From Candidatus Auribacterota bacterium (lineage in GTDB: Bacteria > Auribacterota > Tritonobacteria > UBA1439), in the NCBI GenBank assembly GCA_026392015.1, contig JAPLCW010000172.1, positions 6,320-70,319 of the forward strand: a stretch of 64,000 nt of DNA, read 5' to 3'. Both the position numbers and the translations under genes were made by a program. The notes below the pieces were generated by a model. That model did no database searches. It was not told the origin of the DNA and saw nothing but the letters and a program-made list of their open reading frames with translations. Of the stretch, positions 1 through 40,178 are shown piece by piece. Position 1 is the first letter of the stretch. Each line of letters starts with the position of its first letter.

Positions 1-2
1 AG

Positions 3-812
3 ATGATCCGTTTCAGGAGCCCTGACAACGTCGTAGAGGAGATCGCACGCGTCAAGGAGCGATATCCTCTGGAATTCGTTGTGTTCCATGACTCCTCGTT
101 TCTTTTCAGTACCGACTGGCTCAGGGAATTCTGCTTCAGATTCAAAAAGGAGATAGGCCTGCCCTTCAACTGCAACGCCAGGGCTAATCACATTACCGAA
201 GAGAATGTCGCATGCCTGAAAGAGGGGGGCTGCTTCAGCGTGGTATGGGCTGCCGAGGCGGGGAATGATCATATCCGCAACGACATCCTCAAGCGCGACC
301 TCTCCAAAGAGACCATGCGGCAGGCGAGCCTCCTGCTGCAAAAATCCGGCATCAACTATGAAATACAGAACATCGTCGGCATACCCGGCGAGGGCCTGAG
401 GGAATGTGTTGAAACGCTCGATTTCAATATCGAGTGCCGGCCCGGATATGCGTCAACGTCCCTTCTCTATCCCTACCCCGGAACCGATATTTACGATATC
501 GCGGTACAGATGGGTCTCCTTGCGCCCCGGAACACGCATTTTGATGAAACCTTCTATGTGCGCTCCCCTATTAATCTGCCCGAGAAGAAAGAGATACAAA
601 ATCTCCAGAAGCTTTTCTCCATCACGGTGGAATTCCCCTGGCTCAAGAAATGCACGCTGGTGCTGATCAGGTTGCCCCTGGGCTTCCTCTACAATTTTGT
701 GCGACGAATCCACAAGGGTTTTTGCCTGCGCTACAGGATCTTCTATTACAAGATTAATCTCATGGAATACATAGCGCTCGCTTTTAGATTCATGAGAAGC
801 AAGGCGGGTTAA
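3..812 (+). CDS. B12-binding-domain radical SAM protein, C-terminal portion (5' end outside window)
   Basis: The frame is open from the window edge. RFRSPDNVVEEI...FVVFHDSSF...NIVGIPGEG aligns by eye with the post-CxxxCxxC half of the complete paralogs at 31583, 33374 and 35501 (RRHSPERIVREI, ARSVKNVVDEI, AHSAEYVVEMI). Confidence 0.7.
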   Translation: MIRFRSPDNVVEEIARVKERYPLEFVVFHDSSFLFSTDWLREFCFRFKKEIGLPFNCNARANHITEENVACLKEGGCFSVVWAAEAGNDHIRNDILKRDLSKETMRQASLLLQKSGINYEIQNIVGIPGEGLRECVETLDFNIECRPGYASTSLLYPYPGTDIYDIAVQMGLLAPRNTHFDETFYVRSPINLPEKKEIQNLQKLFSITVEFPWLKKCTLVLIRLPLGFLYNFVRRIHKGFCLRYRIFYYKINLMEYIALAFRFMRSKAG

Positions 813-918
813 CCTGCTCTCATGAGCGTACCGTGGCCGCGCACGGGAATATTCTCTTTGAAACGCACTCACGGCACCGGCGGGAAAACGGTTGTGCGCA
901 CCATCAGGAGATTGAGCA

Positions 919-3051
919 GTGATTCTTCTTTTGATATTTGGTTCCGGCATGTTCCTCTTTGGTTACTCTCTCTCTTCTGCAATAACTCCCGCCATCCAAC
1001 GGCGAGACAGGCGCATCATCGCATTCCCCCTCGGGGCCGGTTGCTATACACTCGCCGTTTTCTGTCTGAATACGCAATTCAAAGTGCCCCTTCAACCATC
1101 TTCCCTCTGGTTGCTTCTGGGAATATGCGTCATTCTTTCCTGCGGTTGGGACATAGCCCGCAATGGCAGGAAATGTTATGAGGTGGCGGAAGCTCCCGTT
1201 GCACCACCGATACCTGTCTCAGCGCTTTGCGGATTTGAGCGCGTGCTTCTCGTTATTGTACTCGCGTTGCTCACAGCTACGGCTGTTCTGGTCCCTGCGG
1301 AGTATTGGGATGTGTATTCCGAATACCTGCCGAGGGCAAAGGAGATTTTTCTTGCTCGCGCTATTCCCCTTAACGCCTCACCCTCGCCCGTTGAACTCAT
1401 CCGGGCTTTTCCACCGGGGCACTGTCTTCTCATCGCCTCCGGCTATTGCATCGCGGGTTTCATCACACACCCCTGGGCCCGCATCCTGACGCCTCTTTAC
1501 GGATGCCTGCTCCTGGCGCTCCTCTACAGAATGGGCAGGCGCCATCTCGCGCTCCCCCAGGAAACAACCCTGGGCGGCCTCCTCCTCTGCACATCCCTGC
1601 CTATCTTCTATGAGGTGATGATCGTACCCACGGGGCTGACCCCCTTTTGCTTTTGTGCGGTCGCGTCACTCTATTTCTTCATGGAACGCAGAGAATCACA
1701 CGACATCGGTAGTATCGTACTCTCCGGCATCTTCTTGGGGCTTGCCTACTGGATATCGTACACCGGCACTGTACTCATTGCGTGCGTTGCGACGCTCCTG
1801 ATCTTACTGTCCGTCGCCGGCGCGTTCGGCAGACGGGTTTTCCCCTCCTGGCTCCGGCTGAAGCCCCGCGAATTTGTCCTGCTGTTTCTCCCCGCCCTCA
1901 TTATCGCAACCCCGCACATGCTTAGGAACTACTTCCTGCTCGGCAATCCTGTCTATCCCGCCCTGTATCGCTATTTCGGAGGTGCATGGATCGATAGTTG
2001 GTCCATTGCACACCTGATCCCCCGTGTGATTCCGGCCCATTCCTTTTTCTTGCGTCCGCGGTGGGAACTGTTTCACGAGGGATTCTTCATCCAACTCCTT
2101 TTCCTTCTCTTTCTCATCTCACGTTCATGGTATAAGGACGCGAAGAGCATCTTCCTCGCCTGTTTTTGTGTGCTCTACTGGCTGTTCTACATAAAATTCC
2201 TCACATGGCCCAGGGTCTCGGGCATATCCACAAAGCTGCTTCTCCCTTCGCTTGTTCCCATGAGCCTTTTCGCCGGAGAGCGGCTTAACCTTGTGCTTCG
2301 AAGGAAAATCCCGCTCTGGCAGGGAGTCATGATACTCGTTCTTGTCCCCCTCTGGACGTTCTTCATCTGGAGGGATGCCATGATATTTCCGGATATTCGC
2401 ACTCATCTTTCGCTTTCACATCCCAAAGACATAATTCATCTCGGGTGGGCATTGAGCGCGGATTTCGACAAAACTCTTCTCTGGATCAGCATTGCCCTGG
2501 GTCTGCTTTCGATCAGGATAATGGGAAGGACTCTGGGACCCCTGAGCGCAGCGCTGATTCTTCTCGCATTGGCATGCCGTCCGGTGGGCGAAAGCGCCCA
2601 TCAACTTGCCCTGCACCTCCAGGAATATGTTCATTCTACCTCCTACTCGTTCTGGAACGCGGCATTTCCCCCATCCTATTTTCCCGAGGCTGCATGGCTC
2701 GATAATAATCTTCCGCCCGATGCGGCGATCGGGAGCTTCGACAACCGCACCTATATTTACCCCAGGCGCGTATTTCCTCTCGACTCACCGCCGCTCTGGC
2801 CCATGTATAAGGGGATGGATATAGAAAATTGCATCGCGCTGCTCAAGAAGAATGGGATCACTCATTTATGTCTCTCGGACTACACGACAAAACCGCATCC
2901 CCTCTATGACATGTCGCCTATTTTTAACAATCTGGGCAACCCTGGCTATTTCCCCCTCCTCTATCGCGGACCGACGAGGGGGGAACCGGGTCATGAATTT
3001 AGCGTGTACGGAGTCGGGGAGCAAAAGGCGCTGTCTCCACCCACAGGCTGA
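919..3051 (+). CDS. large polytopic membrane protein, putative GT-C-fold glycosyltransferase with C-terminal soluble domain
   Basis: 710-aa ORF with more than 10 hydrophobic helices followed by a hydrophilic tail of about 130 aa. The start is uncertain: GTG at 919, first in-frame ATG at 949. Confidence 0.55.
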   Translation: MILLLIFGSGMFLFGYSLSSAITPAIQRRDRRIIAFPLGAGCYTLAVFCLNTQFKVPLQPSSLWLLLGICVILSCGWDIARNGRKCYEVAEAPVAPPIPVSALCGFERVLLVIVLALLTATAVLVPAEYWDVYSEYLPRAKEIFLARAIPLNASPSPVELIRAFPPGHCLLIASGYCIAGFITHPWARILTPLYGCLLLALLYRMGRRHLALPQETTLGGLLLCTSLPIFYEVMIVPTGLTPFCFCAVASLYFFMERRESHDIGSIVLSGIFLGLAYWISYTGTVLIACVATLLILLSVAGAFGRRVFPSWLRLKPREFVLLFLPALIIATPHMLRNYFLLGNPVYPALYRYFGGAWIDSWSIAHLIPRVIPAHSFFLRPRWELFHEGFFIQLLFLLFLISRSWYKDAKSIFLACFCVLYWLFYIKFLTWPRVSGISTKLLLPSLVPMSLFAGERLNLVLRRKIPLWQGVMILVLVPLWTFFIWRDAMIFPDIRTHLSLSHPKDIIHLGWALSADFDKTLLWISIALGLLSIRIMGRTLGPLSAALILLALACRPVGESAHQLALHLQEYVHSTSYSFWNAAFPPSYFPEAAWLDNNLPPDAAIGSFDNRTYIYPRRVFPLDSPPLWPMYKGMDIENCIALLKKNGITHLCLSDYTTKPHPLYDMSPIFNNLGNPGYFPLLYRGPTRGEPGHEFSVYGVGEQKALSPPTG

Positions 3052-3064
3052 ATATCACTGAGAG

Positions 3065-3225
3065 GTAACTGCTTAGGAGCCAGAATTCAGAAGACAGAAT
3101 ACAGAATTCAGAATTCAGGAGACAGGAGATAAACGTTTTCTTAAAATGCCGTTATTCTTAATTCTGTATTCTGGATTCTGTATTCTTGATTTTCTATTCT
3201 GTCTTCTGACTACCTGAGTAGTTAC
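3065..3225. mobile_element. MITE family 1, hairpin-only subtype (1B)
   Basis: Terminal inverted repeats GTAACTGCTTAGGAG / CTACCTGAGTAGTTAC. The interior is a long imperfect hairpin built from cagaattcag/gacaggag units. Flanked by ACTGAGAG (3057-3064) and TCTGAGAG (3226-3233), a 7/8 direct repeat. Confidence 0.75.
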
Positions 3226-3241
3226 TCTGAGAGGACTTATC

Positions 3242-3919: not shown

Positions 3920-3921
3920 CC

Positions 3922-4926: not shown

Positions 4927-7017
4927 CTACTTCCACTCGTGCCCGGACGACCATGCCGGCCAGTAGGCGGAAAAGGCCGGATATACCAGTGGCTCCCGCA
5001 AAAGATATATAAGGCACCCGGTTCCCAGGAGAAGGAGGAGCAGAAGAAGGCAGCGGTAGCACCGTCTATCCGCGGACACCGTTATTCCAGTCGCCGAACA
5101 TCTCGCGGCAAACTGCGAAATATTCCGACATGCGGCAATTGCGAGCGGCATAACCATGGGGGGAAGGTAGTACACCTTGATTAATCGTGTGGCCGCCACA
5201 AGAGGCAAATATAATACGGAAAAAATGATCAGTGTCTTCGATACCCTGTCCGGTTTGAGGAAGGCGGGGAAGATCAAAAAACATGAGGTGATGACAGCCC
5301 ATTCCGCAAGCGTGCCCGCATTCAGCACATACGAGCGGAAGCTCAACCCGGAAAATCGGAACCGCCACGTTTCGTCATAGAGATGCGCCTTCCACAAGGG
5401 GAGAGATCCAAGAATGCTTCCGAACCAGAACACGGCGCTCCAGTAGATTCCATAGATGACGCCCAGGATCAGCAACAGACCGAGCGGCCTTCTCCACTCT
5501 TTCGAGACGATGCTCCATGATGCATACGCGAACATAAGCATCTGGAACCCGTTCAGCCTTGTGAGCATCAGCATTGCGGCCACCGCAATGGCCTCCGGCT
5601 TTCTGTCGCACTCCAGCCAATAGATCGACAACAACAGGATCAGTGTGAAAAAGTGGTCTTCCGCAGAAACAAACAGGTGAAAATTGACGATATTGATCGT
5701 GCTGGCGACGATCGGAAAAAGCAACATGGCACCAGGGAAAATACCCGCATTCTCATTCCGGTATCGATACAATAGAAACATGCACAGACTCAAAAGAAAT
5801 CCCTTGGCGAGCCCCGCTGTTCTCATCGCTCCATACCCGTCGCCGGAGAATGGCGTGGATGCGATCATATTGACCCATACGCTCATGGGAGGGATGGTCA
5901 CGGTATACCCTGGACGCCTGTCAATCAACCCTGACATATACGGGAACAGAAGTCGCCGCATATATATCGGGGGATCCACGATATCCAGAATGTCGTACAA
6001 TGCACCCACCTCGCAAAAGAGCCAGCGCTCCTCTGCCCGGGAGAAGAACGCCGTCCGATTCAACCCGGAATAATTCTCCACGACGAGCGGCAGCTCAGGC
6101 GTTGCCGATGGTGAGATACGCATGCGTACTGTTGTCTCGCCCGGTGGGATATGGCACATTCGCTGCCATATATAACGGTTGTAATTCTTCACCCAGAAAT
6201 CCGGCCGCGCATCCGGTGTCGGGCTGAAGAGGGTACCTTGTTCAGGTGCGCCATCGCCGATTTGGACCGTAACTGTCGCGGGATCGTGCCCGCTGAAAAA
6301 AAATCGAAGATGCGCATCGAGCGCGGTTCCCCGCTCGTTTTTCACCCGGAAGATCGCCTCTTCTCCCGACAGAAGCCAGCGCCCCTTACCCAAAGGCCGC
6401 GCTCCCTCCCGCGCATACACGGCTATGGGGGATATCGGAGAATCATTCCCGGAGAACTCCCAGCTATGCAGCTCCTGAGAAATGGGAATCGGATTAATCC
6501 AGTTCCCCGCAGCGACCCAGTAGCGGTCTATACCCCACGAAAAATATTTTGGGAACAGGAGTGGAAAGGCCAATTGAATTATAAAGCACAACACGAGATA
6601 ACGAAGCCATGGAATCCCTCCAACTGCCGCGCCATTCCTCGCTCTTCCCCAAAAAAAGGCGGGGCAGATCCCGACGCACATTATGCCCCAGAGCCATGCC
6701 GGGGTCATTGCCACTCCCACTGCTTTCAGCAGGCTGGTAACCAGAATCCAACCCCAGACGTTCCACACAAAGCCGGCGAACAGGGTTTCCCCGAAATTCC
6801 CCCTCGGCGCAAAACGCTCCTGCCACGCGAAGGCCGGGTAGAGAAGAAAGACAAGCATCCCCGCCATTCTGCCGGCCTCGGTGAGCACGAGCGAGAGCAG
6901 ACCGCCCCCTCCGCTTCCCGCCAGTAATTGCGCAATTGCGAGGGATCCCCCGCATAAAGCGAGCAGCGCAAGGAGCAACGTAAGGGCAAAGGAATGCGTA
7001 TCAAGTCTCCCCTTCAT
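4927..7017 (-). CDS. large polytopic membrane protein with central soluble domain (function unknown, possible GT-C)
   Basis: The long ORF was trimmed to the ATG at 7017 (MKGRLDTHSFALTLLLALL...) to remove overlap with the upstream methyltransferase; ATG at 7047 is an alternative. Many hydrophobic helices lie on either side of a hydrophilic segment of about 250 aa. Confidence 0.5.
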   Translation of the reverse strand: MKGRLDTHSFALTLLLALLALCGGSLAIAQLLAGSGGGGLLSLVLTEAGRMAGMLVFLLYPAFAWQERFAPRGNFGETLFAGFVWNVWGWILVTSLLKAVGVAMTPAWLWGIMCVGICPAFFWGRARNGAAVGGIPWLRYLVLCFIIQLAFPLLFPKYFSWGIDRYWVAAGNWINPIPISQELHSWEFSGNDSPISPIAVYAREGARPLGKGRWLLSGEEAIFRVKNERGTALDAHLRFFFSGHDPATVTVQIGDGAPEQGTLFSPTPDARPDFWVKNYNRYIWQRMCHIPPGETTVRMRISPSATPELPLVVENYSGLNRTAFFSRAEERWLFCEVGALYDILDIVDPPIYMRRLLFPYMSGLIDRRPGYTVTIPPMSVWVNMIASTPFSGDGYGAMRTAGLAKGFLLSLCMFLLYRYRNENAGIFPGAMLLFPIVASTINIVNFHLFVSAEDHFFTLILLLSIYWLECDRKPEAIAVAAMLMLTRLNGFQMLMFAYASWSIVSKEWRRPLGLLLILGVIYGIYWSAVFWFGSILGSLPLWKAHLYDETWRFRFSGLSFRSYVLNAGTLAEWAVITSCFLIFPAFLKPDRVSKTLIIFSVLYLPLVAATRLIKVYYLPPMVMPLAIAACRNISQFAARCSATGITVSADRRCYRCLLLLLLLLGTGCLIYLLREPLVYPAFSAYWPAWSSGHEWK

Positions 7018-7090
7018 ATTCTTGCCACTCCAATTTCCACCCGGCATGCCGTCACCAGTCGACTCAAGAGGTCCTCTTCGCCATGGCCGC

Positions 7091-7882
7091 CTATAATCGT
7101 TTTCCCAAACAAAGTATGCAAGTCCCAAAAGGCATGAGCATCCTGCGGTCCATCTCCAGAATAAACGAAACGATGGTTGAGAGAAAAGGCCTCGATCTCT
7201 GGTCCCCGCCGGTTGCGGCAAGCGGATATTGTTTCCGAAGCATGCGGCTGTAGATAAGACAGGCGGGAATAGTGGAAAAACCGAAGTATCTCAGCGTGCG
7301 TATGGCGACAAATCCCCTTAGTTTTTCTCGCAACTGCTTCCGGGTATAACGCCTGTAGTGCCCGATCAGCCGGTCGTGGTGTCCAAACAGCCAGGGGCCC
7401 GCCGGCACGGTCACGACAACTATCCCTCCGGGGGCGACAAAGCTGCAAATCTTCTCGGTGACTGTAGTATCGTCTTCAACATGTTCCAGAACATCCGTTG
7501 CGACCACGCAATCGTACGGAGAGTCCGCCCTGAACGACTCGATGGAGGAAACCTGGAAAGAACATCGCGAAAGCCATTGCGAGGCCCCCTGGCTATGCAA
7601 CTCCTCCACCCTCTTCATGACCTCACGGTGGCATTCCTCCGATATATCAATCCCCGTCACGGTATGGCCTTCCGCCGCAAGGAGAAAGGAAAGAATGCCG
7701 GATCCAAAGCCGGCGTTAAGGATCCTGAGGGGCTTGTAGGGTGCGAGCCAATCCAGAATCAACTGGTATTTGGCGCGCTCATAGAGATCCCGGGGGCCGG
7801 ATTTGACCTGTTCGTACAAATCTGCAATCCGGCAAAACCTCTTCAAAATCCTTGTCTGGTACTCAGGCGTCAAAATGGGCAT
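7091..7882 (-). CDS. class I SAM-dependent methyltransferase
   Basis: Motifs LRILNAGFGSGILSFLLAAEGHTVTGIDISEE, DCVVATDVLEHVEDD and PGGIVVVTVP. Confidence 0.8.
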   Translation of the reverse strand: MPILTPEYQTRILKRFCRIADLYEQVKSGPRDLYERAKYQLILDWLAPYKPLRILNAGFGSGILSFLLAAEGHTVTGIDISEECHREVMKRVEELHSQGASQWLSRCSFQVSSIESFRADSPYDCVVATDVLEHVEDDTTVTEKICSFVAPGGIVVVTVPAGPWLFGHHDRLIGHYRRYTRKQLREKLRGFVAIRTLRYFGFSTIPACLIYSRMLRKQYPLAATGGDQRSRPFLSTIVSFILEMDRRMLMPFGTCILCLGKRL

Positions 7883-8044
7883 ATAATCACTATTCCCGCT
7901 GCGGAGGGCTGCACTGGCTCTCGTGCAACCACAGTCCCCTCATTCGCTGCAACTATACCATATGGTCAAAACTCCTTCATTTACAAAACACAAAGAATCA
8001 TTCTTCCCCACAGTACGGGTGCTTCGCTCATAACCCCATTTGCA

Positions 8045-8074
8045 TTAACCTTAACATTACGATAAAATTATAAT
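8045..8074 (+). promoter_or_regulatory. candidate sigma70-like promoter for the GT2/radical SAM operon
   Basis: TTAACC (8045-8050), an 18-nt spacer, then TATAAT (8069-8074), in the AT-rich divergent gap between 7882 and 8192. The organism's promoter consensus is unknown. Confidence 0.25.
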
Positions 8075-8191
8075 GCGTGTCGGTACCATAATGGGCCAAC
8101 CATTGCCCGGTAGCCATTGTATGAATTGTGTTACGAATCCATTGATGCTTGTTATCGAGATCGCCGGCTGGCCTATCAGATCGTCACCTCC

Positions 8192-10356: not shown

Positions 10357-10502
10357 TCTGGATTGTTCAGCAGGCGAATAAAAGAGCGATTTTAACAGTC
10401 TACCCTATGTAACCGCAGATTGGGCAGATTACACAATGCGAATCCGCGTAATCAGCGTAATCCGCGGTTAAAACATTAAAAGTTGGTGAATAGACCAGGC
10501 TA
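10354..10502. mobile_element. MITE family 2 (TA-flanked palindromic element)
   Basis: Ends are TA-GTCTGGATTGTTCAGCAG ... GGTGAATAGACCAGGC-TA. The interior hairpin is aaccgcagattgggcagatt / aatccgcgtaatcagcgtaatccgcggtt. The terminal TAG and CTA are the stop codons of the two convergent genes. Confidence 0.8.
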
Positions 10503-12361: not shown

Positions 12362-12381
12362 GATGAAAAAATCCCCCTCAT

Positions 12382-14367: not shown

Positions 14368-14380
14368 AATCAGGACCTGG

Positions 14381-14959: not shown

Positions 14960-15042
14960 TATTCCTCCATGCCTCACGTCGCTCCTACGGAGCCGGCGAC
15001 ACATTGCTCCGCTAATGTGTCAATTTCGGGGGAGATTGAGTT

Positions 15043-20569: not shown

Positions 20570-20622
20570 AACCACTCCTTTATTTGGATATTCCTTCTCA
20601 AGCCCCTGTCACATTCACTCTA

Positions 20623-22940: not shown

Positions 22941-22953
22941 ATGACCCCTTCGA

Positions 22954-26380: not shown

Positions 26381-26400
26381 AGTCACACTAAGAGCACTTT

Positions 26401-27633: not shown

Positions 27634-27650
27634 TTTATCCTATTGAATGA

Positions 27651-28690: not shown

Positions 28691-28770
28691 TGTAGCATGG
28701 ATCGGGGGATAATGCTATAATGTACCAGTTTGATCAAACTGCAATTATAGTCAGTGGAGGCGTGTCGAAG

Positions 28771-29604: not shown

Positions 29605-29606
29605 TC

Positions 29607-31586: not shown

Positions 31587-33046
31587 AGACAGTGCTCATA
31601 TACCCTTCGCTGACCCCCGGCATCAGGCCCCGGTACGGTCTCCAACCGCTTGGGATTCTCTATCTCGCAGCCAGGCTCAAGGCTGCGGGGGTACAGGTCG
31701 AGATCATCGATGCGGAGATCCTCGGATTGACCATCGAGGCCACCGTTGAAGCCGCCCTTGCTTCGCAGCCCGATCTCGTCGGCATAAGCGCCATGACACC
31801 TCAATACCCGGCGGCACTGGCACTCGCGAAGATGATTAAAAAGCGCGACCCGCGAATCAAGGTATGTCTGGGGGGCTCCCATATCAACGCAACGCAGGCC
31901 GAGTCACTGCGCCTCTCTGATGCGGTTGACTTTCTTGTCTACGGCGAGGGGGAAAACACCCTTGCAGAAGCCGTGGATGTTCTCCGCAGGGGTGACACAC
32001 TCTCCGGCGTGAAAGGGGTAATATATAAAGATAACGGTTCCCTCGCAGTAAATCCACCACGACCGCTTGCTTCTGATATCGATGAGTTCCCATTCCCGGA
32101 TTTCCGCATGGTGCCCCTCGCGCGCTATCGGATACCGTATCTTCAGGGCAGACCGATCGGTTCGATGATATTGAGCCGGGGATGCCCCTATTCGTGCATA
32201 TTCTGCGACGCGTACGTGACACAGGGGAAAAAGCTCAGGCGGCACTCTCCCGAGAGGATCGTACGGGAGATCAAATCATGCAGGAAGGATTTGCATATCA
32301 GAAATTATTCCTTCAAGGACAGCACCTTCACGCTTGACCGCGCCTGGTGCCTCGAACTCTTGCAGCGGTTTATCAAGGAAAAGCTGGATATCCGCTATAG
32401 ATGCAATACCCGTGTGGACAGAATCGACAGCGAGATTCTCCACACGCTCAAGGCATCAGGGTGTACCATGCTCCTCTTTGGGGTGGAATCCGGCTCGCAG
32501 GGCATCCTTGATAAAATGAGAAAGGGCACTACGGTGCAGCAGATACGGCATGCCTTTTCCCTGAGCGCTCGCACCGGAATCCCCACCTATGCCTCATTCA
32601 TGCTCGGCAATATCGGCGAAACCACCGAGACCGCGAGACAGACCATTGAGCTCGCGAAGGCCATCAACCCCGATATTGCGCTCTTTTTCTTCACCACCGC
32701 CTATCCGGGGACGGACCTCTACAACCAGGCCCTCACGAACAGCCTTGTCTCCAAAGACTGGTGGATCAAGGAACAAACCCTCTCCAATGACTATGCGTTC
32801 AGCAAATGGCTGTCCGGAGAGGGAGGGAAGCTGAGGATACAAGGCTTCGATACCGATTACTGGATAAGAAAGGCGTACAGGAGTTTTTATTTCCGCCCCG
32901 CCTACCTGCTGAAGATCGTCGTGGCGCTCTTTAAAAATCCTCGATACATTATAAATCTTTTATATTCCTTCCCCGGGCTTTTAAGTTTTACCCGGAGGAA
33001 GAAAAACACGGGACCCCTCATTCAATCCGGAGAAACCGCCGACTGA
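31583..33046 (+). CDS. B12-binding-domain (class B-like) radical SAM protein
   Basis: The N-terminal Rossmann-like region is VLIYPSL...GILYLAARLKAAGVQVEIID...VGISAM. Motifs SRGCPYSCIFC (CxxxCxxC). The ATG overlaps the upstream stop as ATGA. Confidence 0.85.
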   Translation: MKTVLIYPSLTPGIRPRYGLQPLGILYLAARLKAAGVQVEIIDAEILGLTIEATVEAALASQPDLVGISAMTPQYPAALALAKMIKKRDPRIKVCLGGSHINATQAESLRLSDAVDFLVYGEGENTLAEAVDVLRRGDTLSGVKGVIYKDNGSLAVNPPRPLASDIDEFPFPDFRMVPLARYRIPYLQGRPIGSMILSRGCPYSCIFCDAYVTQGKKLRRHSPERIVREIKSCRKDLHIRNYSFKDSTFTLDRAWCLELLQRFIKEKLDIRYRCNTRVDRIDSEILHTLKASGCTMLLFGVESGSQGILDKMRKGTTVQQIRHAFSLSARTGIPTYASFMLGNIGETTETARQTIELAKAINPDIALFFFTTAYPGTDLYNQALTNSLVSKDWWIKEQTLSNDYAFSKWLSGEGGKLRIQGFDTDYWIRKAYRSFYFRPAYLLKIVVALFKNPRYIINLLYSFPGLLSFTRRKKNTGPLIQSGETAD

Positions 33047-33282: not shown

Positions 33283-33373
33283 TAGCCGGTCTGGTTCTAT
33301 TGTTATAGAATTTCCGTGACGCTGCGTGCTCCGCAGCGTATGCTCGGTTCCACAACCCAGGTGTGTCACTTAC

Positions 33374-34729
33374 ATGGCCCGTACAGTTCTATTGATCTTC
33401 CAGGCGCCGACCCAGAGGCGGTTGTTTATAAATACCCTGCCCCCCCTGGGGATTCTCGGTATTGCCTCATACCTGACGTCCAAAGGGCTCGATGTCACCG
33501 TCAGAGACTGTTACACAGACATGCTTCGTGACGAGGATATTCTCCGCGCGGATCTTATCGGTCTCAGCATCAACGTATCAAATGTCGAAAACTCGCTGAA
33601 CACCATCGCCCGAATTTCCCGTGCGTGGCCGGAGAAACGAATCGTGGTGGGCGGTCCCCTCCCCATGTCCGCTCCGGAACAGATCATCCGTCAGGAGGGG
33701 ATTCGCGCGGTGGCAATCGGCGAGGGCGAAGAGATCATGCACCAGCTCGCCACAGAGGAATCGTGGGATGCCATTAAAGGGCTTTACCTGAAAGACGATA
33801 CCGGCAGGATATTCTTTACGGGGGCGCGAGAGCCGATCAGGAATCTTGACCTTCTCCCCTTCCCGGCGCTGGACAGGGTGGATCTATCCCGCTACTACTC
33901 GCCCGTCAAGAAGGCCCTCCCCATATCCAACATCATGACTTCGCGCGGATGCCCGTTCAACTGCATTTTTTGTTTCAAGACGATGGGGAGCGCCTGGAGG
34001 GCCCGCTCCGTGAAGAACGTCGTGGATGAAATCGAATGGCAGGTGCACGCTTTTGGGGTAAGAGAGATATGCATCTACGATGATAATTTCAGCATGGATG
34101 TGGAGCGCGCGGAAGCCATTTGCGACGAGATTATCGAACGAAAAATCAAGGTCCATCTCCAGCTTCCCAACGGGATCAGGGTGGATCGCCTTACGCGCGC
34201 CGCTCTCCGGAAGCTGAAGGCCGCGGGTGTGTGGCTCGTGGGTGTCGCGCCTGAGACGGGAAGCAGGGAAACACTGAAAAAGATTTCAAAGGGCTTCGAT
34301 CTGGATAAGGTTTCAGATGTCGTACGCTGGTGCAAAGAGGAAGGGATCTCCACCTACTCATTTTTCATGATCGGCTTCCCCTGGGAAGAGAAAACGCATA
34401 TAGAGGACACCATACGCTTTGCCACGGGGCTTGACACGGAGCTGACGCAGTTTTCACGAGTGACCGCCTTCCCCGGAACCGCGCTCTATGATATACTGCT
34501 TCGCGAAGGCGCAATCAGAGGAACCGCCCTGCGCGATCAGGGGTTGTTTTATGGCGGCACGTCGCACATGGTCAAGGGAATCAGCGACGCCGAGCTTCGC
34601 CGCCTGATCACCCGGGCATATCGAAGGGCATACCTTCGGCCCGGGAAATGGCTGCGCTTGCTGCGGATGCTTTCGTTGAGAGACCTCTGGAACCTTTTTG
34701 TGTACTCGCTCACCACCGGAAGCATATGA
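33374..34729 (+). CDS. B12-binding-domain (class B-like) radical SAM protein
   Basis: Trimmed to the ATG at 33374 (MARTVLLIFQAP...). Motifs GILGIASYLTSKGLDVTVRD, GLSINV and SRGCPFNCIFC. Confidence 0.85.
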   Translation: MARTVLLIFQAPTQRRLFINTLPPLGILGIASYLTSKGLDVTVRDCYTDMLRDEDILRADLIGLSINVSNVENSLNTIARISRAWPEKRIVVGGPLPMSAPEQIIRQEGIRAVAIGEGEEIMHQLATEESWDAIKGLYLKDDTGRIFFTGAREPIRNLDLLPFPALDRVDLSRYYSPVKKALPISNIMTSRGCPFNCIFCFKTMGSAWRARSVKNVVDEIEWQVHAFGVREICIYDDNFSMDVERAEAICDEIIERKIKVHLQLPNGIRVDRLTRAALRKLKAAGVWLVGVAPETGSRETLKKISKGFDLDKVSDVVRWCKEEGISTYSFFMIGFPWEEKTHIEDTIRFATGLDTELTQFSRVTAFPGTALYDILLREGAIRGTALRDQGLFYGGTSHMVKGISDAELRRLITRAYRRAYLRPGKWLRLLRMLSLRDLWNLFVYSLTTGSI

Positions 34730-34754
34730 CCGGCGCGGGAGCAGACGGGGACAA

Positions 34755-35504
34755 ATGAATCAGTATAGTATCTCCATGGTACTCCCGATGTTCAATGAGA
34801 AGGACTATGTAACGAGAACCGTGGCCCTCGCGATCCGCACGCTCGATACCATCACGGACGATTACGAGATCATTATTGTGGACGACGCGAGCACGGACGG
34901 CTGCGGTGATATCGCCGATCGCATGTCCCGGGATAACCGAAAGATTAAGGTCCTGCACCACAAGGTGAACTCGAAGCTGGGCGCGACCCTGCGAACCGGC
35001 TTTGCCGCTGCGCAGAAGAATCTTGTTGTCTACAGCGACATGGATCTCCCGTTTGACTTTGAAGAAATCAAAAAGGCACTGAGGGTCATGGATCTGACCG
35101 ATTGCGATATCGTGACCGTCTATCGCCATGACCGAACGAGCGAGGGTCTCCTGCGGGCAGTCTATTCCGCGGGCTACAATATGCTCATACGCATCATGTT
35201 CGGGGTGCGCGTCCGGGATATCAACTTTTCCTTCAAGCTCTTCAAGAGGAAGATACTGGAATCCATGCAATTGCGGTCCAACGGCTCTTTCATCGATGCG
35301 GAACTGATCATACGGGCGATCCGCGCGGACCACCATGTATCTCAATTTGGAATAGACTACTTTCCCAGATCCAGGGGCACGTCGACCCTCTCCAGTCCGG
35401 GGATCATCCTCACAATCTTCAAAGAGATGATCTCATTTCGAATCAGACTCTTCACACGCAGTAAGGATGCGCCTCCATCGAGGCGCGCTCTTCCGCCGGA
35501 ATGA
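34755..35504 (+). CDS. family 2 glycosyltransferase, Dpm1/GtrB-like
   Basis: Trimmed to the ATG at 34755 (MNQYSISMVLPMFNEKDYV). Motifs IIIVDDASTDG and VVYSDMDLP. Confidence 0.8.
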   Translation: MNQYSISMVLPMFNEKDYVTRTVALAIRTLDTITDDYEIIIVDDASTDGCGDIADRMSRDNRKIKVLHHKVNSKLGATLRTGFAAAQKNLVVYSDMDLPFDFEEIKKALRVMDLTDCDIVTVYRHDRTSEGLLRAVYSAGYNMLIRIMFGVRVRDINFSFKLFKRKILESMQLRSNGSFIDAELIIRAIRADHHVSQFGIDYFPRSRGTSTLSSPGIILTIFKEMISFRIRLFTRSKDAPPSRRALPPE

Positions 35505-36925
35505 ATAAAATCCTTTTCCTGAACCCGCCGCTCTCCACGCAAGAACGCTACGGCGCGCTGGCGGCGGCGGGGGCAATGGAGCCGCCCCACGGTCTCACGT
35601 ATCTGGCGAGCGTGATGAGGGAGTCGGGATGGGACACTCACATACTGGATGCCGAGGCGCTACGGCTCAATGAGAGTGAAGCCGTCGAGAGAACCATCTC
35701 CCTCTCACCGGAAATAGTTGCGTGCACCGCCGTCACTCTCTCCATACAACGTGCTGCCGCGGTGGCCGCAGCGGTCAAGAAACTCCGTCCCGATATCATC
35801 ACAATTGCAGGGGGGGTGCACCTCACCTCACAGCCCAATGAGACCATGCTCCGTTTCCCGTCTTTCGACTATGGCGTCATCGGAGAAGGGGAGCGCACGC
35901 TTGCGGAGCTTGCAGCAGCACTGTCTGACAATCAGGAGACGCGGGGGATACCGGGGGTCGTGTCGCGGGACGGGGCGCGTGTGCACCAGGCCCCGCGGAG
36001 ACCGTTCATCAAAGAACTCGATACCCTCCCCATGCCGGCATGGGATCTCCTGCCGCACCTCCCCCGCTATTACTATCTTCCACCGCAGAGCATCCAGGCT
36101 ACCCCCTCCACTTCACTCATCACCTCGCGCGGATGCACCGGGCGCTGCATTTTTTGCGACACAAGCGTATTCAGGAATGTGTGCAGGGCGCACAGCGCCG
36201 AATACGTCGTGGAGATGATCCGAACACTCCGCCATCGGTTCGGCATTAGAGAAATCCTCTTTGAGGATGACAACTTCATGATCTTCGGCCGCCGCCTTCA
36301 ACAGCTTACCGAACTTATGACCCGCGAAGGTATTACGCTGAGCTGGAGCTGCCTGGCACGGGCGGACATGATGCCCGACCCTTCGGTACTCCAGGACATG
36401 CGCAGAGCGGGGTGCTGGCAGATACTCATCGGCATCGAATCCGGATGCCAGGAGATTCTCGACTTTGAGAAGAAAGGCATTACGCTGGAACAGATAGAGG
36501 ATGCGGTACGCCGCGTGCGCAGCGCCGGAATGAGGACAAAAGGATTCTTGATGCTGGGGCACCCGATGGAAACAGAGGAAACGATCAAGAGGACATTGCG
36601 GTTTGTGACACGCATCCCCCTGGATGACATCAGCGTCACATTTTTTACCGTGTTTCCCGGAGCCCCGATCGCGGAGGAGGCCTCGCGCTACGGCAGAGTG
36701 ATCTCCGATTTCAGCAAAATGAGTGTCTTCCAGCCCACCTTTATCCCCGAGGGATTTACCGCCGAGAAGCTCGACCTGTACGCCCGCTACTATCTGAAAA
36801 AATTCTACCTCAGGCCGAGGATTGTACTTTCGTATCTGGGAAGAATGAGGAGCTGGCGGCAACTAAGAGCGATGCTCAAAGGGGCATGTGCCCTACTCGG
36901 GCATCTGTTTCGCAGGCATGCATGA
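35501..36925 (+). CDS. B12-binding-domain (class B-like) radical SAM protein
   Basis: ILFLNPP...GLTYLASVMRESGWDTHILD, SRGCTGRCIFC. The ATG overlaps the GT2 stop as ATGA (35501-35504). Confidence 0.85.
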   Translation: MNKILFLNPPLSTQERYGALAAAGAMEPPHGLTYLASVMRESGWDTHILDAEALRLNESEAVERTISLSPEIVACTAVTLSIQRAAAVAAAVKKLRPDIITIAGGVHLTSQPNETMLRFPSFDYGVIGEGERTLAELAAALSDNQETRGIPGVVSRDGARVHQAPRRPFIKELDTLPMPAWDLLPHLPRYYYLPPQSIQATPSTSLITSRGCTGRCIFCDTSVFRNVCRAHSAEYVVEMIRTLRHRFGIREILFEDDNFMIFGRRLQQLTELMTREGITLSWSCLARADMMPDPSVLQDMRRAGCWQILIGIESGCQEILDFEKKGITLEQIEDAVRRVRSAGMRTKGFLMLGHPMETEETIKRTLRFVTRIPLDDISVTFFTVFPGAPIAEEASRYGRVISDFSKMSVFQPTFIPEGFTAEKLDLYARYYLKKFYLRPRIVLSYLGRMRSWRQLRAMLKGACALLGHLFRRHA

Positions 36926-37070
36926 GAGCGGATACCCGATGCCATGCCTGCGCAGCCCTGCCTGTCTCTCGTTCAGCCCGATAGAAGAGCGCACGCCACA
37001 ACATCTCCTCAGATTGAGCAGGAGATAAGGGAAACCACTGAGGACACTGAAGCCACTGAATAAAAAACTG

Positions 37071-37264
37071 GTAACTGCTCAGAAGCCAGAATTCAGAAGT
37101 CAGAAGCCAGGAGTTGGAATAAGGACGTTAGCGGCGACATTTGAGGACTTGGGATAGGGCGATGTTTCCGAGTTAATGCAGTTACTCGAAGAGGTCAGCA
37201 AACTACTGGAAGCTTAATCCATTCTGGATTCTGGCTCCTGGATTCTGACTACCGGAGTAGTTAT
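37071..37264. mobile_element. MITE family 1, subtype 1A (carries a decayed ORF remnant)
   Basis: GTAACTGCTCAGAAGCCAGAATTCAG ... CTGGATTCTGACTACCGGAGTAGTTAT. The interior translates to FEDLG*GDVSELMQLLEEVSKLLEA*. It abuts the stop codon of the gene at 37266. Confidence 0.75.
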
Positions 37265-37265
37265 G

Positions 37266-40178
37266 CTATTTCTTGTAGACGCTCTTCTCGTCGAATGCCT
37301 GGACTCGGTGGTTTTGCGTGTCGGCGATGTACACGCGCCCACCACGGATTGCGATGCCGATCGGGATGTTGAAATCACCCGGCTTGAACCCCTTCCCGGA
37401 CCAGAGTCCGAGGAGAGTGCCTGAGGAATCGAAAATTTGGATCCTGTTATTCCGGCTGTCGGTGACCCAGACCCTGCTCTTCGCGTCGACCGCGACGAAA
37501 GGCTCCGTATAAAACTCCTCCCATCCGAGGACGCCGAACATGCCTAGGAATTTCCCATTCAGATCAAATTTCTGCACGCGCTTGTTGGCGGTGTCGGTCA
37601 CGTACACCACCTCTCCCCTCACCTCTTTCTGCTTCTTCTCCTTGTCCGCCGGCGCAATGATCCCGTTCGGATCAATGGCGACCCCCACCGGCTCACCGAA
37701 CTCGCCCGGCTTCTCCCCTACCCTTTGCTCCTCGCTGCCCCATAAGAGGAGAGACTTCCCCTCGCGGCTGAACTTCTGGATGCGGTGCCTGCCGGTGTCC
37801 GCTACGTAGAGGTTCCCGGCGCTATCGAACGCCAGGCCCTTCGGCGCCCAGAAAACCTCCGGCCCACCCCACTGGAATACAAATTTCCCGGTAGCGTCGA
37901 ATTTCTGAATCCTATGGTTCCACGTGTCAGAAACGTAGACGTTCCCCTCCTGATCCACCGCGATCCCTGTCGGTTGCTCGAACTGCGCCTCACCCTTCCC
38001 CTGCGCGCCGACGCTCAATAAAGGCTTCCCCTCCTTATCGAACTTCTGCCAGCGATGATTCTTCGTGTCGGCGACATAGATCGACCCCTCGCCATCCGCG
38101 CATATCCCCCGCGGCTCATCGAAGCGACCGGGCGCCGAACCGCGCTCGCCGAAGATCAGGGCAGGCTTCACCTGGCCGATGATCTCGTACTTCTCCGGCA
38201 CGATCGGCTTCAGCTTTGGTGTGCCCTCGCCCTCTTTTATCTCCTGCACGGCGCCCATCTTCTCCCCCACGAGATCCTTACGGACGTAGAAGGCGATATC
38301 CTGCGATCCCGCCGGGTCAGGATTCTCACTCCACCAGCCTTTGCGCTTCGTGGGGTTCCACGTCTCGCGGAAGAAGTAGTACTTGAGCCACGCGGCCACG
38401 GGGTTCTTAAGAGTGCTCGCGGGATCCGGGATCCACCAGACCCGCAGCTTCCGCCTCTTCTCAATGTAGTTCGGCTCGAGGATATTGCCGTAGTCCTTCC
38501 TCTTCTCCCAGTCAACCGCCACGACCGCCTTTTGTGTGTTCGTAATCGATCCGGGATGGAACCAGTTCTTGTAGTCGCGCAGGTACCAGGTGAACGGCCA
38601 CGACGATTCGCCCTGCACGCCTATCGCGAAATTTTCGCCCTTGCCCGTTTGCGCGGCGTATTCGGCGATCTCCTTGAGGCACTCCTTGATATCAACGGAC
38701 GTCTGCGTATACACCATCCGCTCCACCGGATTCGCCTCATTGATAAAGCAGAGGCGGAGCGAGGCCTGGAGATAGAGGAGGATGCCTATCATGCAGAGGA
38801 CAACATATGCATTCGCATGCCTTCTGAACCTCTCCGAACGGAGGAACTCATCCATGAAGAGGCTAACCCACAGCACGAGCGGCATGAGGATGTGCATGAG
38901 GAGCCAGGGAACCTTTTCGCCCGCATAGGAGTAGATGAGGGCGCTTGACATGCTCCAGTATGCGAGAAAGGCAGGGAAGCGCCGCCCCTCCTCAAGGTAG
39001 TGGCACACCGCGGTGAACATTATCACGAATATGTAAACGGCGAAAACGATATGGAGCGTGTTCGTCATGTGAAACTTCGTATCCCAGGGGTCAGCGGGGA
39101 GGGTCTGGTGCCAGAAGAGCATGAGCGGGATTCCGATAACCGAGCTGACGAGAAGAATGTTCCGGGAGAGACGCGACGTCTTCAGCAGCGCCACGAGGCC
39201 CGCGAACAGGATGACGAGGAGGGGCAGTTCGTACACGATGGCGAGCGGGCAGAAATAGGTGAACACATCCTTGATGCGCTGGATCTTGTCCTGGTGAACC
39301 CAGTAGCCGAGCGATTTGCGATAGAGCCCGTCTACGAAGCCCCCCGGATTCTGAAAGAAAGAGGTGAAAAAGAGGTAGAAGACTCCAAAAAAGATAGCGA
39401 GCGAAATGAGGATGTCCAGCAGCGGGATTTTTGCCGCGGGTAGTTGCACGACGGCCTCCCCCTCGGCCTTGCCTTCGCCCTCACTTTCGGCATTACCTTC
39501 GGCCTCACCTTCAGCCTCACCCTCGGTGGGCTCGCGTTTGACAAAAAATCTTTCAAATATCCGCATAAAAACGGGAAAACTCACGAAAATAGCGAGAAAG
39601 ATATACGAATTCTCCTTCACGCAGAATACAAAGGCGAACGCGGCGGCAGCACCGTAGAGGAACCCCCTCTTCCGAGTATCAAGGTAGTTCACAAAGAGCG
39701 CGAAGGCAAGGAATGCCCAGAAGGCGACGAAGATATCCTCTCTGAAGAAACGGGAGAAATACATAAAAGTAGGCGAGATGGCAAAGAGCGCAGCCGCGGT
39801 GAGACTGCCGATCTTGCCGAGCCGCCTCCGCAGGAGAAGAGTGCAACAGACCAGGGCGATCCCGAAGACCGCCGATGACGAACGCGCGACGAAATCGCCG
39901 GCGCCGAACAGCGAGAAGAGCATGGCGTCGAGGTAGAACATGAACGGCCCGTGCATCATCGGGTCGTACTTGTACCCTTTGCCGTCGTAGAGGTACCAGG
40001 AGTAGGTCGCATAGAGGCTCTCGTCATGGTGATACGGTTTGAGCTGAAGTCCGTAGACACGGGTAAATATAGTGAATACGATGATGGCCAGGTAGATGGC
40101 CTTGTACCAGTCGAATCGGATGACAAGGTACTCTTTCTCAGGAGCGGCAGAAGCGGTTGGATCTATGTTCTGGTTCAT
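37266..40178 (-). CDS. TIGR03663-like GT-C glycosyltransferase fused to a C-terminal six-bladed NHL-repeat beta-propeller
   Basis: N-terminus: LKPYHHDESLYATYSWYLYDGKGYKYDPMMHGPFMFYL. C-terminus: six repeats of the type F.EP.GIAVD..G.IYVADT.NHRIQKFD. An acidic insert, EGEAEGEAEGNAESEGEGKAEGEA, lies in a loop. Confidence 0.8.
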   Translation of the reverse strand: MNQNIDPTASAAPEKEYLVIRFDWYKAIYLAIIVFTIFTRVYGLQLKPYHHDESLYATYSWYLYDGKGYKYDPMMHGPFMFYLDAMLFSLFGAGDFVARSSSAVFGIALVCCTLLLRRRLGKIGSLTAAALFAISPTFMYFSRFFREDIFVAFWAFLAFALFVNYLDTRKRGFLYGAAAAFAFVFCVKENSYIFLAIFVSFPVFMRIFERFFVKREPTEGEAEGEAEGNAESEGEGKAEGEAVVQLPAAKIPLLDILISLAIFFGVFYLFFTSFFQNPGGFVDGLYRKSLGYWVHQDKIQRIKDVFTYFCPLAIVYELPLLVILFAGLVALLKTSRLSRNILLVSSVIGIPLMLFWHQTLPADPWDTKFHMTNTLHIVFAVYIFVIMFTAVCHYLEEGRRFPAFLAYWSMSSALIYSYAGEKVPWLLMHILMPLVLWVSLFMDEFLRSERFRRHANAYVVLCMIGILLYLQASLRLCFINEANPVERMVYTQTSVDIKECLKEIAEYAAQTGKGENFAIGVQGESSWPFTWYLRDYKNWFHPGSITNTQKAVVAVDWEKRKDYGNILEPNYIEKRRKLRVWWIPDPASTLKNPVAAWLKYYFFRETWNPTKRKGWWSENPDPAGSQDIAFYVRKDLVGEKMGAVQEIKEGEGTPKLKPIVPEKYEIIGQVKPALIFGERGSAPGRFDEPRGICADGEGSIYVADTKNHRWQKFDKEGKPLLSVGAQGKGEAQFEQPTGIAVDQEGNVYVSDTWNHRIQKFDATGKFVFQWGGPEVFWAPKGLAFDSAGNLYVADTGRHRIQKFSREGKSLLLWGSEEQRVGEKPGEFGEPVGVAIDPNGIIAPADKEKKQKEVRGEVVYVTDTANKRVQKFDLNGKFLGMFGVLGWEEFYTEPFVAVDAKSRVWVTDSRNNRIQIFDSSGTLLGLWSGKGFKPGDFNIPIGIAIRGGRVYIADTQNHRVQAFDEKSVYKK

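Follow-up and report, generated by a model that had tools for sequence, protein, structure and literature searches.

What is made by a stretch of some 40 kb in which nearly all genes encode either large membrane proteins, glycosyltransferases, radical S-adenosylmethionine (SAM) enzymes or methyltransferases? The question is raised by the genome of Candidatus Auribacterota bacterium, an uncultured member of the PVC group that is known only from metagenomes. We analyzed 64,000 nucleotides of it, hereafter the window (assembly GCA_026392015.1, contig JAPLCW010000172.1, positions 6,320 to 70,319); the array occupies window positions 1-40178. A preliminary description had read it as a glycosylation locus with nine membrane proteins of the glycosyltransferase C (GT-C) type, five family 2 glycosyltransferases (GT2s) that load polyprenyl phosphate, six radical SAM (rSAM) enzymes and four methyltransferase domains. 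On the evidence presented here, we consider it likely that the array is a lineage-specific envelope glycosylation locus. The logic of the Arn, Gtr and mycobacterial systems would be multiplied in it, with sugars carried on lipid donors and a glycan assembled or decorated outside the cytoplasm.

Pfam scans covered all 28 open reading frames (ORFs) of positions 1-40178, which are named here by their first coordinate, with M1 to M9 for the large membrane proteins (Table 1). Every ORF listed earlier is present, either at the position it had been given or at most about 75 nt away. Independent assemblies give the same gene calls for 3922, 8192, 4927-7017 and the block 20775-33046. The four classes hold 24 of the 28 ORFs but leave out a left-handed beta-helix (LbH) acetyltransferase (14381), a GFO/IDH/MocA oxidoreductase (16082), a GHMP kinase (19583) and a gene remnant (27651). 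Some gene ends overlap (8192-9259/9256, 31586/31583, 34729/34698 and 35504/35501), which implies that GT2 and rSAM genes are translationally coupled. Paralogues within the array are strongly diverged, with at most 32% identity and most pairs missed by BLASTP; recent tandem duplication or amplification was rejected because of this divergence.

The nine membrane proteins each have 7-10 transmembrane (TM) segments by hydropathy prediction, and most of them carry C-terminal non-membrane regions of 110-500 aa. Five pass a curated GT-C profile: M1, M4, M5 and M9 exceed the gathering score of PMT_2 (26.1 bits), and M8 matches GT87. No Pfam or NCBIfam match was found for M2, M3 and M7, nor did sequence searches of PDB chains with these three return any; a profile of M6/M3 searched against PDB was equally without result. 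Structure prediction with AlphaFold2 (AF2) and Foldseek comparison were carried out for M7 and M2. M7 has more than 549 homologues, some of them labelled DUF6311 or YfhO, and its model, built from 33 homologues, reached a pLDDT of 88 and a pTM of 0.89. All 25 Foldseek matches of this model with E<1e-3 are GT-C enzymes (STT3, DPY19, AglB, AftA, PglB, ArnT and ALG12), with TM-scores of about 0.5. The M2 family is very rare (3 homologues in 5.8e9 proteins, 13 representatives in 1.84e9). In the M2 model (pLDDT 82), five N-terminal helices are followed by a beta-sandwich at residues 166-336 that resembles the carbohydrate-binding modules (CBMs) CBM16/29/36/61, and then by about 10 more helices. Foldseek ranked ArnT first for this model (E=1e-4, TM-score 0.32-0.40); STT3 and ALG9 followed with E values around 0.02. 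In hhalign, M2 residues ~375-500 were matched by the PMT_2 core of each of three families, M4, M5 and M9 (best 70.9% probability, E=3.8e-5). The same method links M3 to the M6 family (99.3%) and, over the first loop and TM region, to that of M4 (87.7%, E=3e-6).

The case for GT-C-like proteins is accordingly strong for M1, M4, M5, M7, M8 and M9, but only moderate to weak for M2, M3 and M6. Transporter and Wzy polymerase identities were rejected, as none of the nine profiles or models as either and no such Pfam or fold matches appeared. An acidic motif lies right after the first TM segment in M1 and in M3-M9, as had been noticed before. The acidic residue is invariant where it could be aligned: D49 in 33 M7 homologues, D342 in 14 M2 homologues and E36 in M3/M6 (E36, Y38 and G40 of M6 are all invariant with M3). 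Predicted topology would place the motif in the periplasm, and the GT-C-like proteins would be expected to use polyprenyl-phosphate-linked sugar donors. For M1, the exact product with start 919 is absent from sequence records.

M9 belongs to the Agl23 family. It scores 343.4 bits against TIGR03663 (cutoff 126.25) and covers model positions 3-431 of 435. A role as hexose-P-dolichol flippase has been proposed for Agl23 of Haloarcula (H. hispanica), which in purified form moves lipid-linked oligosaccharide in liposomes (PMC11182771). By analogy, M9 may be a flippase and/or a transferase, and its NHL propeller would equally well suit acceptor binding, i.e., a transferase. This bears on the earlier remark that export and initiation machinery is lacking. 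Phosphoglycosyltransferase (PGT), Wzx, Wzy and ABC exporter domains were indeed not found in the ORFs scanned across the 64-kb window, and neither were GtrA, MATE and MOP domains in ORFs of at least 100 aa (positions 1-64000) or in the small intergenic ORFs tested. However, since M9 falls in a family with a flippase prototype, export machinery is not simply missing. The M9 gene also contains a 12-nt tandem repeat (6.2 copies, window 39452-39526), which gives the protein an acidic, (E-G-E-A)n-like linker between TM segments, at residues ~219-242.

Glycos_transf_2 domains occur in five genes, 8192 (with a longer ORF from 8117), 10500, 15299, 28720 and 34698. Four of the five match polyprenyl-phosphate-type enzymes best, with dolichyl-phosphate mannose synthase (DPMS), ArnC and GtrB as their nearest relatives. 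The best PDB match of both 10500 (E=2e-23) and 28720 (E=1.5e-21, aligned over nearly the full length) is the DPMS of Pyrococcus furiosus, 5mlz, followed by ArnC and GtrB; the same structure is the sole PDB match of 15299. The GtrB/Dpm1-like character claimed for all five does not extend to 8192, which groups with soluble or other GT-A enzymes, TarS and GalT1 in PDB (DPMS ranks only seventh) and MftF and EpsD in NCBIfam. With four of five GT2s of this type and no transporter or Wzy among the nine membrane proteins, neither outcome that the preliminary description had set as refuting its reading was observed. The four donor-type GT2s all stay below the NCBIfam equivalog cutoffs (best scores 52-117 bits against 325-529), and to judge from these scores they are relatives, not members, of the orthologue groups ArnC, AglJ, PpgS and Dol-P-hexose transferase.

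All six rSAM genes (3-812, 9256, 11237, 31583, 33326 and 35501) were recovered with the Pfam Radical_SAM domain, and they comprise four B12-binding (class B) and two SPASM enzymes. An N-terminal B12-binding domain precedes the rSAM core in 31583, 33326 and 35501, and ORF 3-812 aligns to residues 218-390, the C-terminal half, of 31583 (E=1.5e-18). The B12-binding enzymes reach no named equivalog in NCBIfam (HpnJ, BchE, PhpK or others). The four methyltransferase domains were likewise found where expected, in 3242, 3922 (with a longer ORF from 3703), 7091 and the C-terminal part of 29607; in the last gene, the partner of the methyltransferase is a Fer4/FrhB module, not a radical SAM domain. A scan of metagenome contigs with this FrhB-methyltransferase (FrhB-MT) fusion gave only two irrelevant partial methyltransferase matches.

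The remaining enzymes would prepare sugars. Acetamido sugars are made by a standard route that is exemplified by the WbpB/E/D and Arn pathways, and the dehydrogenase, aminotransferase and acetyltransferase of the locus resemble a route to a 3-acetamido sugar. The aminotransferase gene (40970) lies just outside the 40,178-nt interval and is probably part of the pathway. BacA, further downstream, would serve in carrier recycling and may thereby be linked to the locus.

Table 1. Genes of the array and two further genes of the window with a probable or possible role in glycosylation.
Feature	Position	Strand	Evidence and remarks
B12-type radical SAM, 3' part, cut by window start	1-812 (ORF 3-812)	+	Radical_SAM 38.8 bits
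M1, GT-C-like (PMT_2)	919-3051	+	PMT_2 32.7 bits; ~10 TM; EYWDVYSEY after TM; start codon uncertain
SAM methyltransferase, 225 aa	3242-3919	+	Methyltransf_25/23/11; gene call confirmed in other assembly
SAM methyltransferase, 316 aa	3922-4872	+	Methyltransf_23 78 bits; 316 aa also on Logan contig
M2, rare GT-C-like	4927-7017	-	5 N-terminal TM, CBM-like beta-sandwich insert, PMT_2/ArnT-like membrane module
SAM methyltransferase, 263 aa	7091-7882	-	Methyltransf_23/25/11
GT2, not polyprenyl-phosphate type	8192-9259	+	2 C-terminal TM; Pfam GT2, Glyco_tranf_2_3, GT21; coupled to 9256
Radical SAM/SPASM	9256-10356	+	Radical_SAM 56.8 bits, SPASM weak; no NCBIfam equivalog
GT2, DPMS/ArnC type	10500-11396	-	no TM; true start probably near 11240; NCBIfam top ArnC
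Radical SAM/SPASM	11237-12442	-	Radical_SAM 80 bits, SPASM 28 bits
M3, GT-C-like, distant M6 paralogue	12382-14367	-	9 TM; BLASTP to M6 E=8e-14
LbH sugar N/O-acetyltransferase	14381-15004	-	Hexapep; NCBIfam best NeuD/PglB/VioB family
GT2, polyprenyl-phosphate type	15299-16078	+	no TM; NCBIfam top PpgS, AglJ, Dol-P-hexose transferase
GFO/IDH/MocA oxidoreductase	16082-17119	+	NCBIfam top (archaeal) UDP-GlcNAc 3-dehydrogenase 141 bits, below cutoff 450
M4, GT-C (PMT_2)	17257-19263	+	PMT_2 42 bits; 9 TM; HPDGYYY after TM1; 54% orthologue in L088
GHMP sugar kinase, HddA-like	19583-20575	-	GHMP_kinases_N/C; HddA 162 bits, below cutoff 600; 71% orthologue in L088
M5, GT-C (PMT_2)	20775-22940	-	PMT_2 45 bits; ~330-aa C-terminal extramembrane domain; orthologues in L004, L088
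M6, GT-C-like	22954-24756	-	PMT_2 21.2 bits, E=3.5e-4, sub-threshold (vs 26.1); 9 TM
M7, GT-C fold, widespread DUF6311/YfhO-like family	24740-26380	-	AF2 and Foldseek; D49 invariant in DEGDG loop after TM1
M8, GT87 (PimE-type) GT-C	26401-27612	-	GT87 65 bits
Remnant, C-terminal ~265 aa of polytopic protein	27651-28379 (28445 in longer form)	-	242-264 aa; no Pfam match
GT2, DPMS/GtrB type	28720-29604	+	C-terminal TM helices; NCBIfam top AglJ (117 bits)
Fusion of Fer4, FrhB_FdhB_N/C (flavin/FeS reductase-like) and SAM methyltransferase	29607-31586	+	Pfam, NCBIfam
B12-binding radical SAM	31583-33046	+	B12-binding 95.6 bits and Radical_SAM 75.7 bits; HpnJ, BchE best but far below cutoffs
B12-binding radical SAM, first of rSAM-GT2-rSAM triad	33326-34729	+	Pfam
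GT2, ArnC/GtrB/DPMS type	34698-35504	+	no TM; PDB top ArnC, GtrB, DPMS; NCBIfam top ArnC, AglJ
B12-binding radical SAM	35501-36925	+	Pfam, NCBIfam
M9, Agl23-family PMT_2 module and C-terminal NHL beta-propeller	37266-40178	-	970 aa; PMT_2 46.7 bits; NHL x5; HHDESLY after TM1
DegT/PseC/ArnB-type sugar aminotransferase	40970-42214	-	DegT_DnrJ_EryC1 417 bits; NCBIfam top PseC, ArnB (ArnB 237 bits)
BacA/UppP undecaprenyl-diphosphate phosphatase	61444-62208	-	BacA 220 bits

The distribution of these genes is narrow. By its ClpB, the window is assigned to Auribacterota and has tight relatives at 78-94% identity, including a metagenome-assembled genome named Candidatus Aureabacteria, and identity next drops to 69%. 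The M7 family is spread over many phyla, usually as a lone gene; for 50 non-Auribacterota loci around M7 homologues (~20 kb, all at least 15 kb), the medians were 1.5 for large polytopic proteins, 0.36 for GT2s and 0.08 for rSAMs. The multigene block was found only in the closest Auribacterota relatives (loci L002, L004/5, L006, L007/15 and L088), in which M4, the GHMP kinase, M5, M6, M7, M8, GT2 28720, FrhB-MT, the B12-binding rSAM and GT2 15299 recur. Triads of rSAM, GT2 and rSAM genes with overlapping ends are also present in L006 and L088, and the FrhB-MT fusion adjoins a GT2 in L002, L004, L006 and L088. The order M1, two methyltransferases, M2 is repeated on a contig whose M2 is 78% identical. 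In a further relative, L089, the M9 orthologue (77%) adjoins ClpB and is followed (6352-14431) by a Polysacc_synt/Wzx-like flippase, a methyltransferase, two family 4 glycosyltransferases (GT4s) and a GT2; the same position in the window holds only the DegT gene.

Relatives also clarify ORF 27651. It aligns to residues ~470-733 of 715-760-aa proteins with 9-10 TM segments, which are intact in L004 (7664-9862), L006 (4189-6333), L088 (4389-6614) and, in two copies, L015. Because the full-length form is intact there, and no stretch of the window encodes its N-terminal membrane portion, the ORF is, on these alignments, a truncated remnant, and the relatives hold a tenth large membrane-protein family at this locus. 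The conserved gene order speaks for a block already present in the ancestor of the lineage and against a horizontally acquired island. The GC content is 0.43-0.49 across M6-M7-M8 (window 22000-28000) and ~0.52-0.59 elsewhere; since the block is syntenic in relatives, the dip may reflect the codon composition of membrane proteins rather than recent transfer.

From the domain, family and fold assignments, the translational coupling and the synteny, we infer a scheme that covers the donor lipid and its sugars, the step at which these are tailored, the flippase and the acceptor. The GHMP kinase, the 3-dehydrogenase-like oxidoreductase, the DegT aminotransferase and the LbH acetyltransferase would prepare unusual sugars in the cytoplasm, and GT2s 10500, 15299, 28720 and 34698 would load these on polyprenyl phosphate. 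The methyltransferases, the four B12-binding rSAMs, the two SPASM rSAMs and the Fer4/FrhB-MT fusion would tailor the sugars while they are nucleotide-linked or lipid-linked. The lipid-linked sugars would then cross the membrane, possibly flipped by M9. Eight or nine divergent GT-Cs, most of which bring their own extracytoplasmic domain (an NHL propeller, a CBM-like sandwich or alpha/beta domains), would each pass a sugar to an extracytoplasmic acceptor; between them, they would build a complex glycan or glycoconjugate or else decorate one.

Several points weigh against this scheme. The GT-Cs (8-9) outnumber the donor synthases (4). Many parallel modules, each of one GT2 and one GT-C, had been envisaged earlier; such modules are conceivable, but the ratio is not 1:1, and sequential Agl-like elongation on one carrier may take their place. 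No GT2 of the locus attains an NCBIfam equivalog cutoff, and three of the four donor-type enzymes (10500, 15299 and 34698) lack, by prediction, the TM/anchor helices of GtrB, ArnC and the P. furiosus DPMS; soluble catalytic subunits do occur in the DPMS family, namely human DPM1 and domain 2 of mycobacterial Ppm1. Support for a GT-C fold is weak for M2, given its TM-scores, and for M3 and M6, which are without a PDB match even by profile. There is no GtrA or MATE flippase in the window, while the flippase role of M9 leans on one archaeal homologue and its NHL domain fits a transferase as readily. Finally, the Wzx-like flippase and GT4s beside the M9 orthologue suggest that a glycan backbone may be made classically elsewhere.

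This last point is taken further by an explanation in which the GT-Cs take no part in assembly and are confined to attaching side-chain sugars once the polymer has been exported, as in Gtr and GT136 systems and with ArnT. The polymer, a polysaccharide or lipopolysaccharide, would be made by a Wzx/Wzy or ABC pathway encoded elsewhere. This explanation overlaps with the one that we prefer and differs from it in the acceptor only. In L089, the M9 orthologue directly precedes the Wzx-like flippase, the two GT4s, the GT2 and the methyltransferase, and our own window holds an epimerase/dehydratase in addition to BacA. Three-component systems that act after polymerization are also widespread (PMC11127046). 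On the other hand, 8-9 GT-Cs conserved as blocks are far above the number in any described decoration system, and the 64 kb of the window contain no backbone genes. We regard pure decoration as possible, though on balance rather unlikely.

An Agl-like pathway would have the GT2s act in turn on one polyprenyl-phosphate carrier in the cytoplasm and, after the model of AglJ/G/I/E and AglP, produce a methylated oligosaccharide. M9 would flip the carrier, and some GT-Cs would add terminal sugars or glycosylate proteins, which would amount to general protein glycosylation. The Agl23 membership of M9, its NHL propeller of the protein-interaction type and the soluble methyltransferases interspersed among the GT2s would fit such a pathway. 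AglJ is the best NCBIfam match of GT2 28720 (117 bits), and 15299 and 34698 also match AglJ and Dol-P-hexose transferase, but all AglJ scores are far under the equivalog cutoff of 325, and the four donor-type GT2s resemble enzymes that place a first sugar on the lipid, not elongating glycosyltransferases. Similarly, the best structural matches of M7 are the oligosaccharyltransferases STT3, AglB and PglB, yet its family is labelled DUF6311/YfhO, and YfhO-type enzymes use monosaccharide-P-lipid donors. With neither a Pfam match to STT3/PglB/AglB nor a WWDYG-type C-terminal domain in the 28 ORFs scanned, we find this pathway improbable.

Least plausible is a mixed locus, in which the rSAM, FrhB-MT and methyltransferase genes, together with GT2 8192 and its SPASM partner, make a separate and merely co-located product. 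Candidates would be a membrane lipid with hopanoid-, ladderane- or ether-lipid-like modification and a glycosylated ribosomally synthesized and post-translationally modified peptide (RiPP) or cofactor (mycofactocin-like). In NCBIfam, the best matches of the B12-binding rSAMs are indeed HpnJ, BchE and a model named "lipid biosynthesis B12-binding/radical SAM"; those of the SPASM enzymes are the peptide and cofactor maturases HxsC, PqqE and MftC, and that of GT2 8192, which is not of the polyprenyl-P type, is MftF, but all these scores are far under the family cutoffs. A separate lipid or RiPP pathway is very doubtful because of gene coupling and synteny: rSAM and GT2 genes overlap end to end, and the triads and the GT2-FrhB/MT-rSAM block are conserved jointly with GT-C genes in relatives. 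Squalene/hopene cyclase, polyketide and Mft genes were not found in the window, nor was a credible precursor-peptide ORF upstream of 8192.

With an envelope glycosylation locus as the preferred explanation, known systems can be compared with it. The M. tuberculosis arabinogalactan cluster Rv3779-Rv3809c holds AftA, EmbC/A/B and the decaprenyl-P-arabinose pathway. It also contains AftB and Rv3779, a polyprenyl-P-GalNAc-dependent GT-C (PMC3229680). As in the Auribacterota locus, several GT-Cs are found in ~30 kb beside genes for the synthesis and tailoring of polyprenyl-P-sugar donors, and AftA is among the structural matches of M7. In mycobacteria, the donor is tailored while lipid-linked and the glycan is assembled outside the cytoplasm, features that would apply to the Auribacterota locus as well. 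However, the two share no sequence-level orthology; the mycobacterial donor synthase is a UbiA-type phosphoribosyltransferase instead of a GT2 of the DPMS/ArnC type, and the mycobacterial cluster, unlike this locus from the PVC group, is without radical SAM or B12 enzymes.

The Arn pathway (ArnB aminotransferase, ArnA, ArnC GT2, ArnD, ArnE/F flippase and ArnT GT-C) follows a logic that the locus would share, with amino-sugar formation, N-acylation, GT2 transfer to undecaprenyl-P, on-lipid modification, flipping and GT-C transfer to a periplasmic acceptor. ArnC is the first or second-ranked solved match for GT2s 28720, 10500 and 34698, ArnT is the best match of M2, and the DegT enzyme matches ArnB. 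In contrast to Arn, which is a single pathway that modifies lipid A, the locus is multiplied, all NCBIfam scores in this comparison are under the equivalog cutoffs, and homologues of ArnE/F, ArnA and ArnD are absent from it. GtrA/GtrB/GtrC and GT136 pentofuranose systems join three parts, namely a synthase for the polyprenyl-P-sugar, a flippase, and a GT-C whose C-terminal domain binds carbohydrate; their logic is established (Kelly et al. 2024, PMC11127046). M2 also bears a CBM-like domain, but the window scans gave no GtrA/MATE flippase, there are ~9 GT-Cs here and one there, and the systems described so far have no counterpart to the heavy radical SAM tailoring of this locus.

Archaeal Agl N-glycosylation systems (GT2s AglJ and AglD, methyltransferase AglP, flippase-associated protein Agl23, GT-Cs AglS and AglB) share with the locus the Agl23 model passed by M9, GT2s that match AglJ and Dol-P-hexose transferase, a GFO enzyme (16082) whose best match is an archaeal UDP-GlcNAc 3-dehydrogenase, and methylation enzymes among the GT2s. 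They differ in that the present host is bacterial, AglB/STT3 was not detected, M9 adds the NHL propeller, and the B12-binding rSAMs have no Agl counterpart. A classical Wzx/Wzy or ABC O-antigen or capsule locus is unlike it in still other respects, as the initiating PGT, Wzx/Wzy/ABC and the GT-B/GT-A Leloir enzymes that act on an Und-PP-glycan were not found in the window.

The claim that no described locus has a comparable density of GT-Cs proved overstated, since the mycobacterial cluster and loci of Candidatus Gottesmanbacteria are also GT-C-dense. Two of the latter, from bacteria of the candidate phyla radiation (CPR) (L043, 1-21608; L056, 1-18187), have 9-11 polytopic proteins of 430-590 aa clustered within ~21 kb about an M7 homologue. 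Matches to ALG10, PMT_2 or GT22 were obtained for several of these proteins, and a DegT aminotransferase accompanies them, but there are almost no GT2 or radical SAM genes. We found no characterization of these arrays in the literature. Literature searches on Auribacterota, on FrhB with pyruvyl transferase, and on GT-C with radical SAM, PMT_2 or metagenome-assembled genomes likewise returned no description of a locus such as ours, and one Auribacterota genome paper does not mention glycosyltransferases, glycosylation or radical SAM enzymes. What is unusual is the combination of GT-C density with four B12-binding rSAMs, two SPASM rSAMs, four methyltransferase domains and the FrhB-reductase fusion, and also the conserved GT2/rSAM coupling, the Agl23-NHL fusion and the rare M2 architecture. 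The underlying principle is known, and we view the locus as an uncharacterized extreme variant of a known strategy, not as a new kind of system.

If our interpretation is correct, a candidate phylum without a cultured member devotes ~40 kb to extracytoplasmic glycan assembly from lipid donors, on a scale like that of the mycobacterial arabinan machinery. New enzyme families are offered by the very rare M2 with its CBM-like insert, the widespread M7/DUF6311 and the Agl23-NHL fusion, and the locus provides a bacterial setting for asking whether Agl23-type GT-C-fold proteins are flippases. The conserved pairs of GT2s and B12-binding rSAMs suggest that sugars, in lipid-linked or nucleotide form, undergo radical chemistry. 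Known sugar-modifying B12-binding rSAMs such as GenK and GenD1 work in aminoglycoside pathways, and we know of few precedents for radical chemistry in glycan biosynthesis. A more specific proposal, which we put forward as speculative and consider unlikely to hold in full, is that an Auribacterota envelope glycan is built wholly on the outer face of the membrane by at least eight GT-Cs, from donors that are supplied by an Agl23-type GT-C-fold flippase and diversified by B12-binding rSAMs (e.g., by C-methylation), and that the triads and the GT2-FrhB/MT-rSAM block act on polyprenyl-phosphate-linked sugars. It would mean a new mode of glycan diversification, with radical tailoring at the lipid-carrier stage.

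A few observations concern the regulation and surroundings of the array. Neither Rfam families nor tRNA genes were found in the window, and hence no riboswitch control was detected. In positions 1-20 kb, promoter-like sites were no more frequent than expected by chance, and terminator-like sites exceeded shuffled sequences by ~2 standard deviations, a weak signal. Beyond the array, a stand-alone response-regulator receiver (44894-45325, minus strand) lies directly upstream of ClpB (42242-44854, minus strand), and the pair is kept in L089. Two very large S8 subtilases with PPC domains, which could both be secreted or surface proteins, are encoded on the minus strand at 52433-56452 (1339 aa) and 57434-60754 (1106 aa); the former has a bacterial TSP3 repeat and 66-nt tandem repeats at 53076-53248.

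The window also carries five copies of a palindromic intergenic repeat of ~160-220 nt, at ~3062-3225, 37070-37265, 52178-52402, 56935-57115 and 63805-63985. Its termini are conserved and inverted (GTAACTGCTCAGGAGCCAGAATTCAG ... CTTCTGACTACCTGAGTAGTTAC), its arms are made of 7-nt repeats, and its core occurs in two subtypes. The 15-mer GGAGACAGAATYCAG of this repeat has 18 matches against 0.41 expected, and a folding energy of -65.8 kcal/mol (z = -7.6) was computed for the copy at 3060-3225. Copies are located at gene ends, no Rfam family matches them, and another assembly breaks at the copy near 3.1 kb. The repeat is probably an element similar to miniature inverted-repeat transposable elements or repetitive extragenic palindromes (MITE/REP-like).

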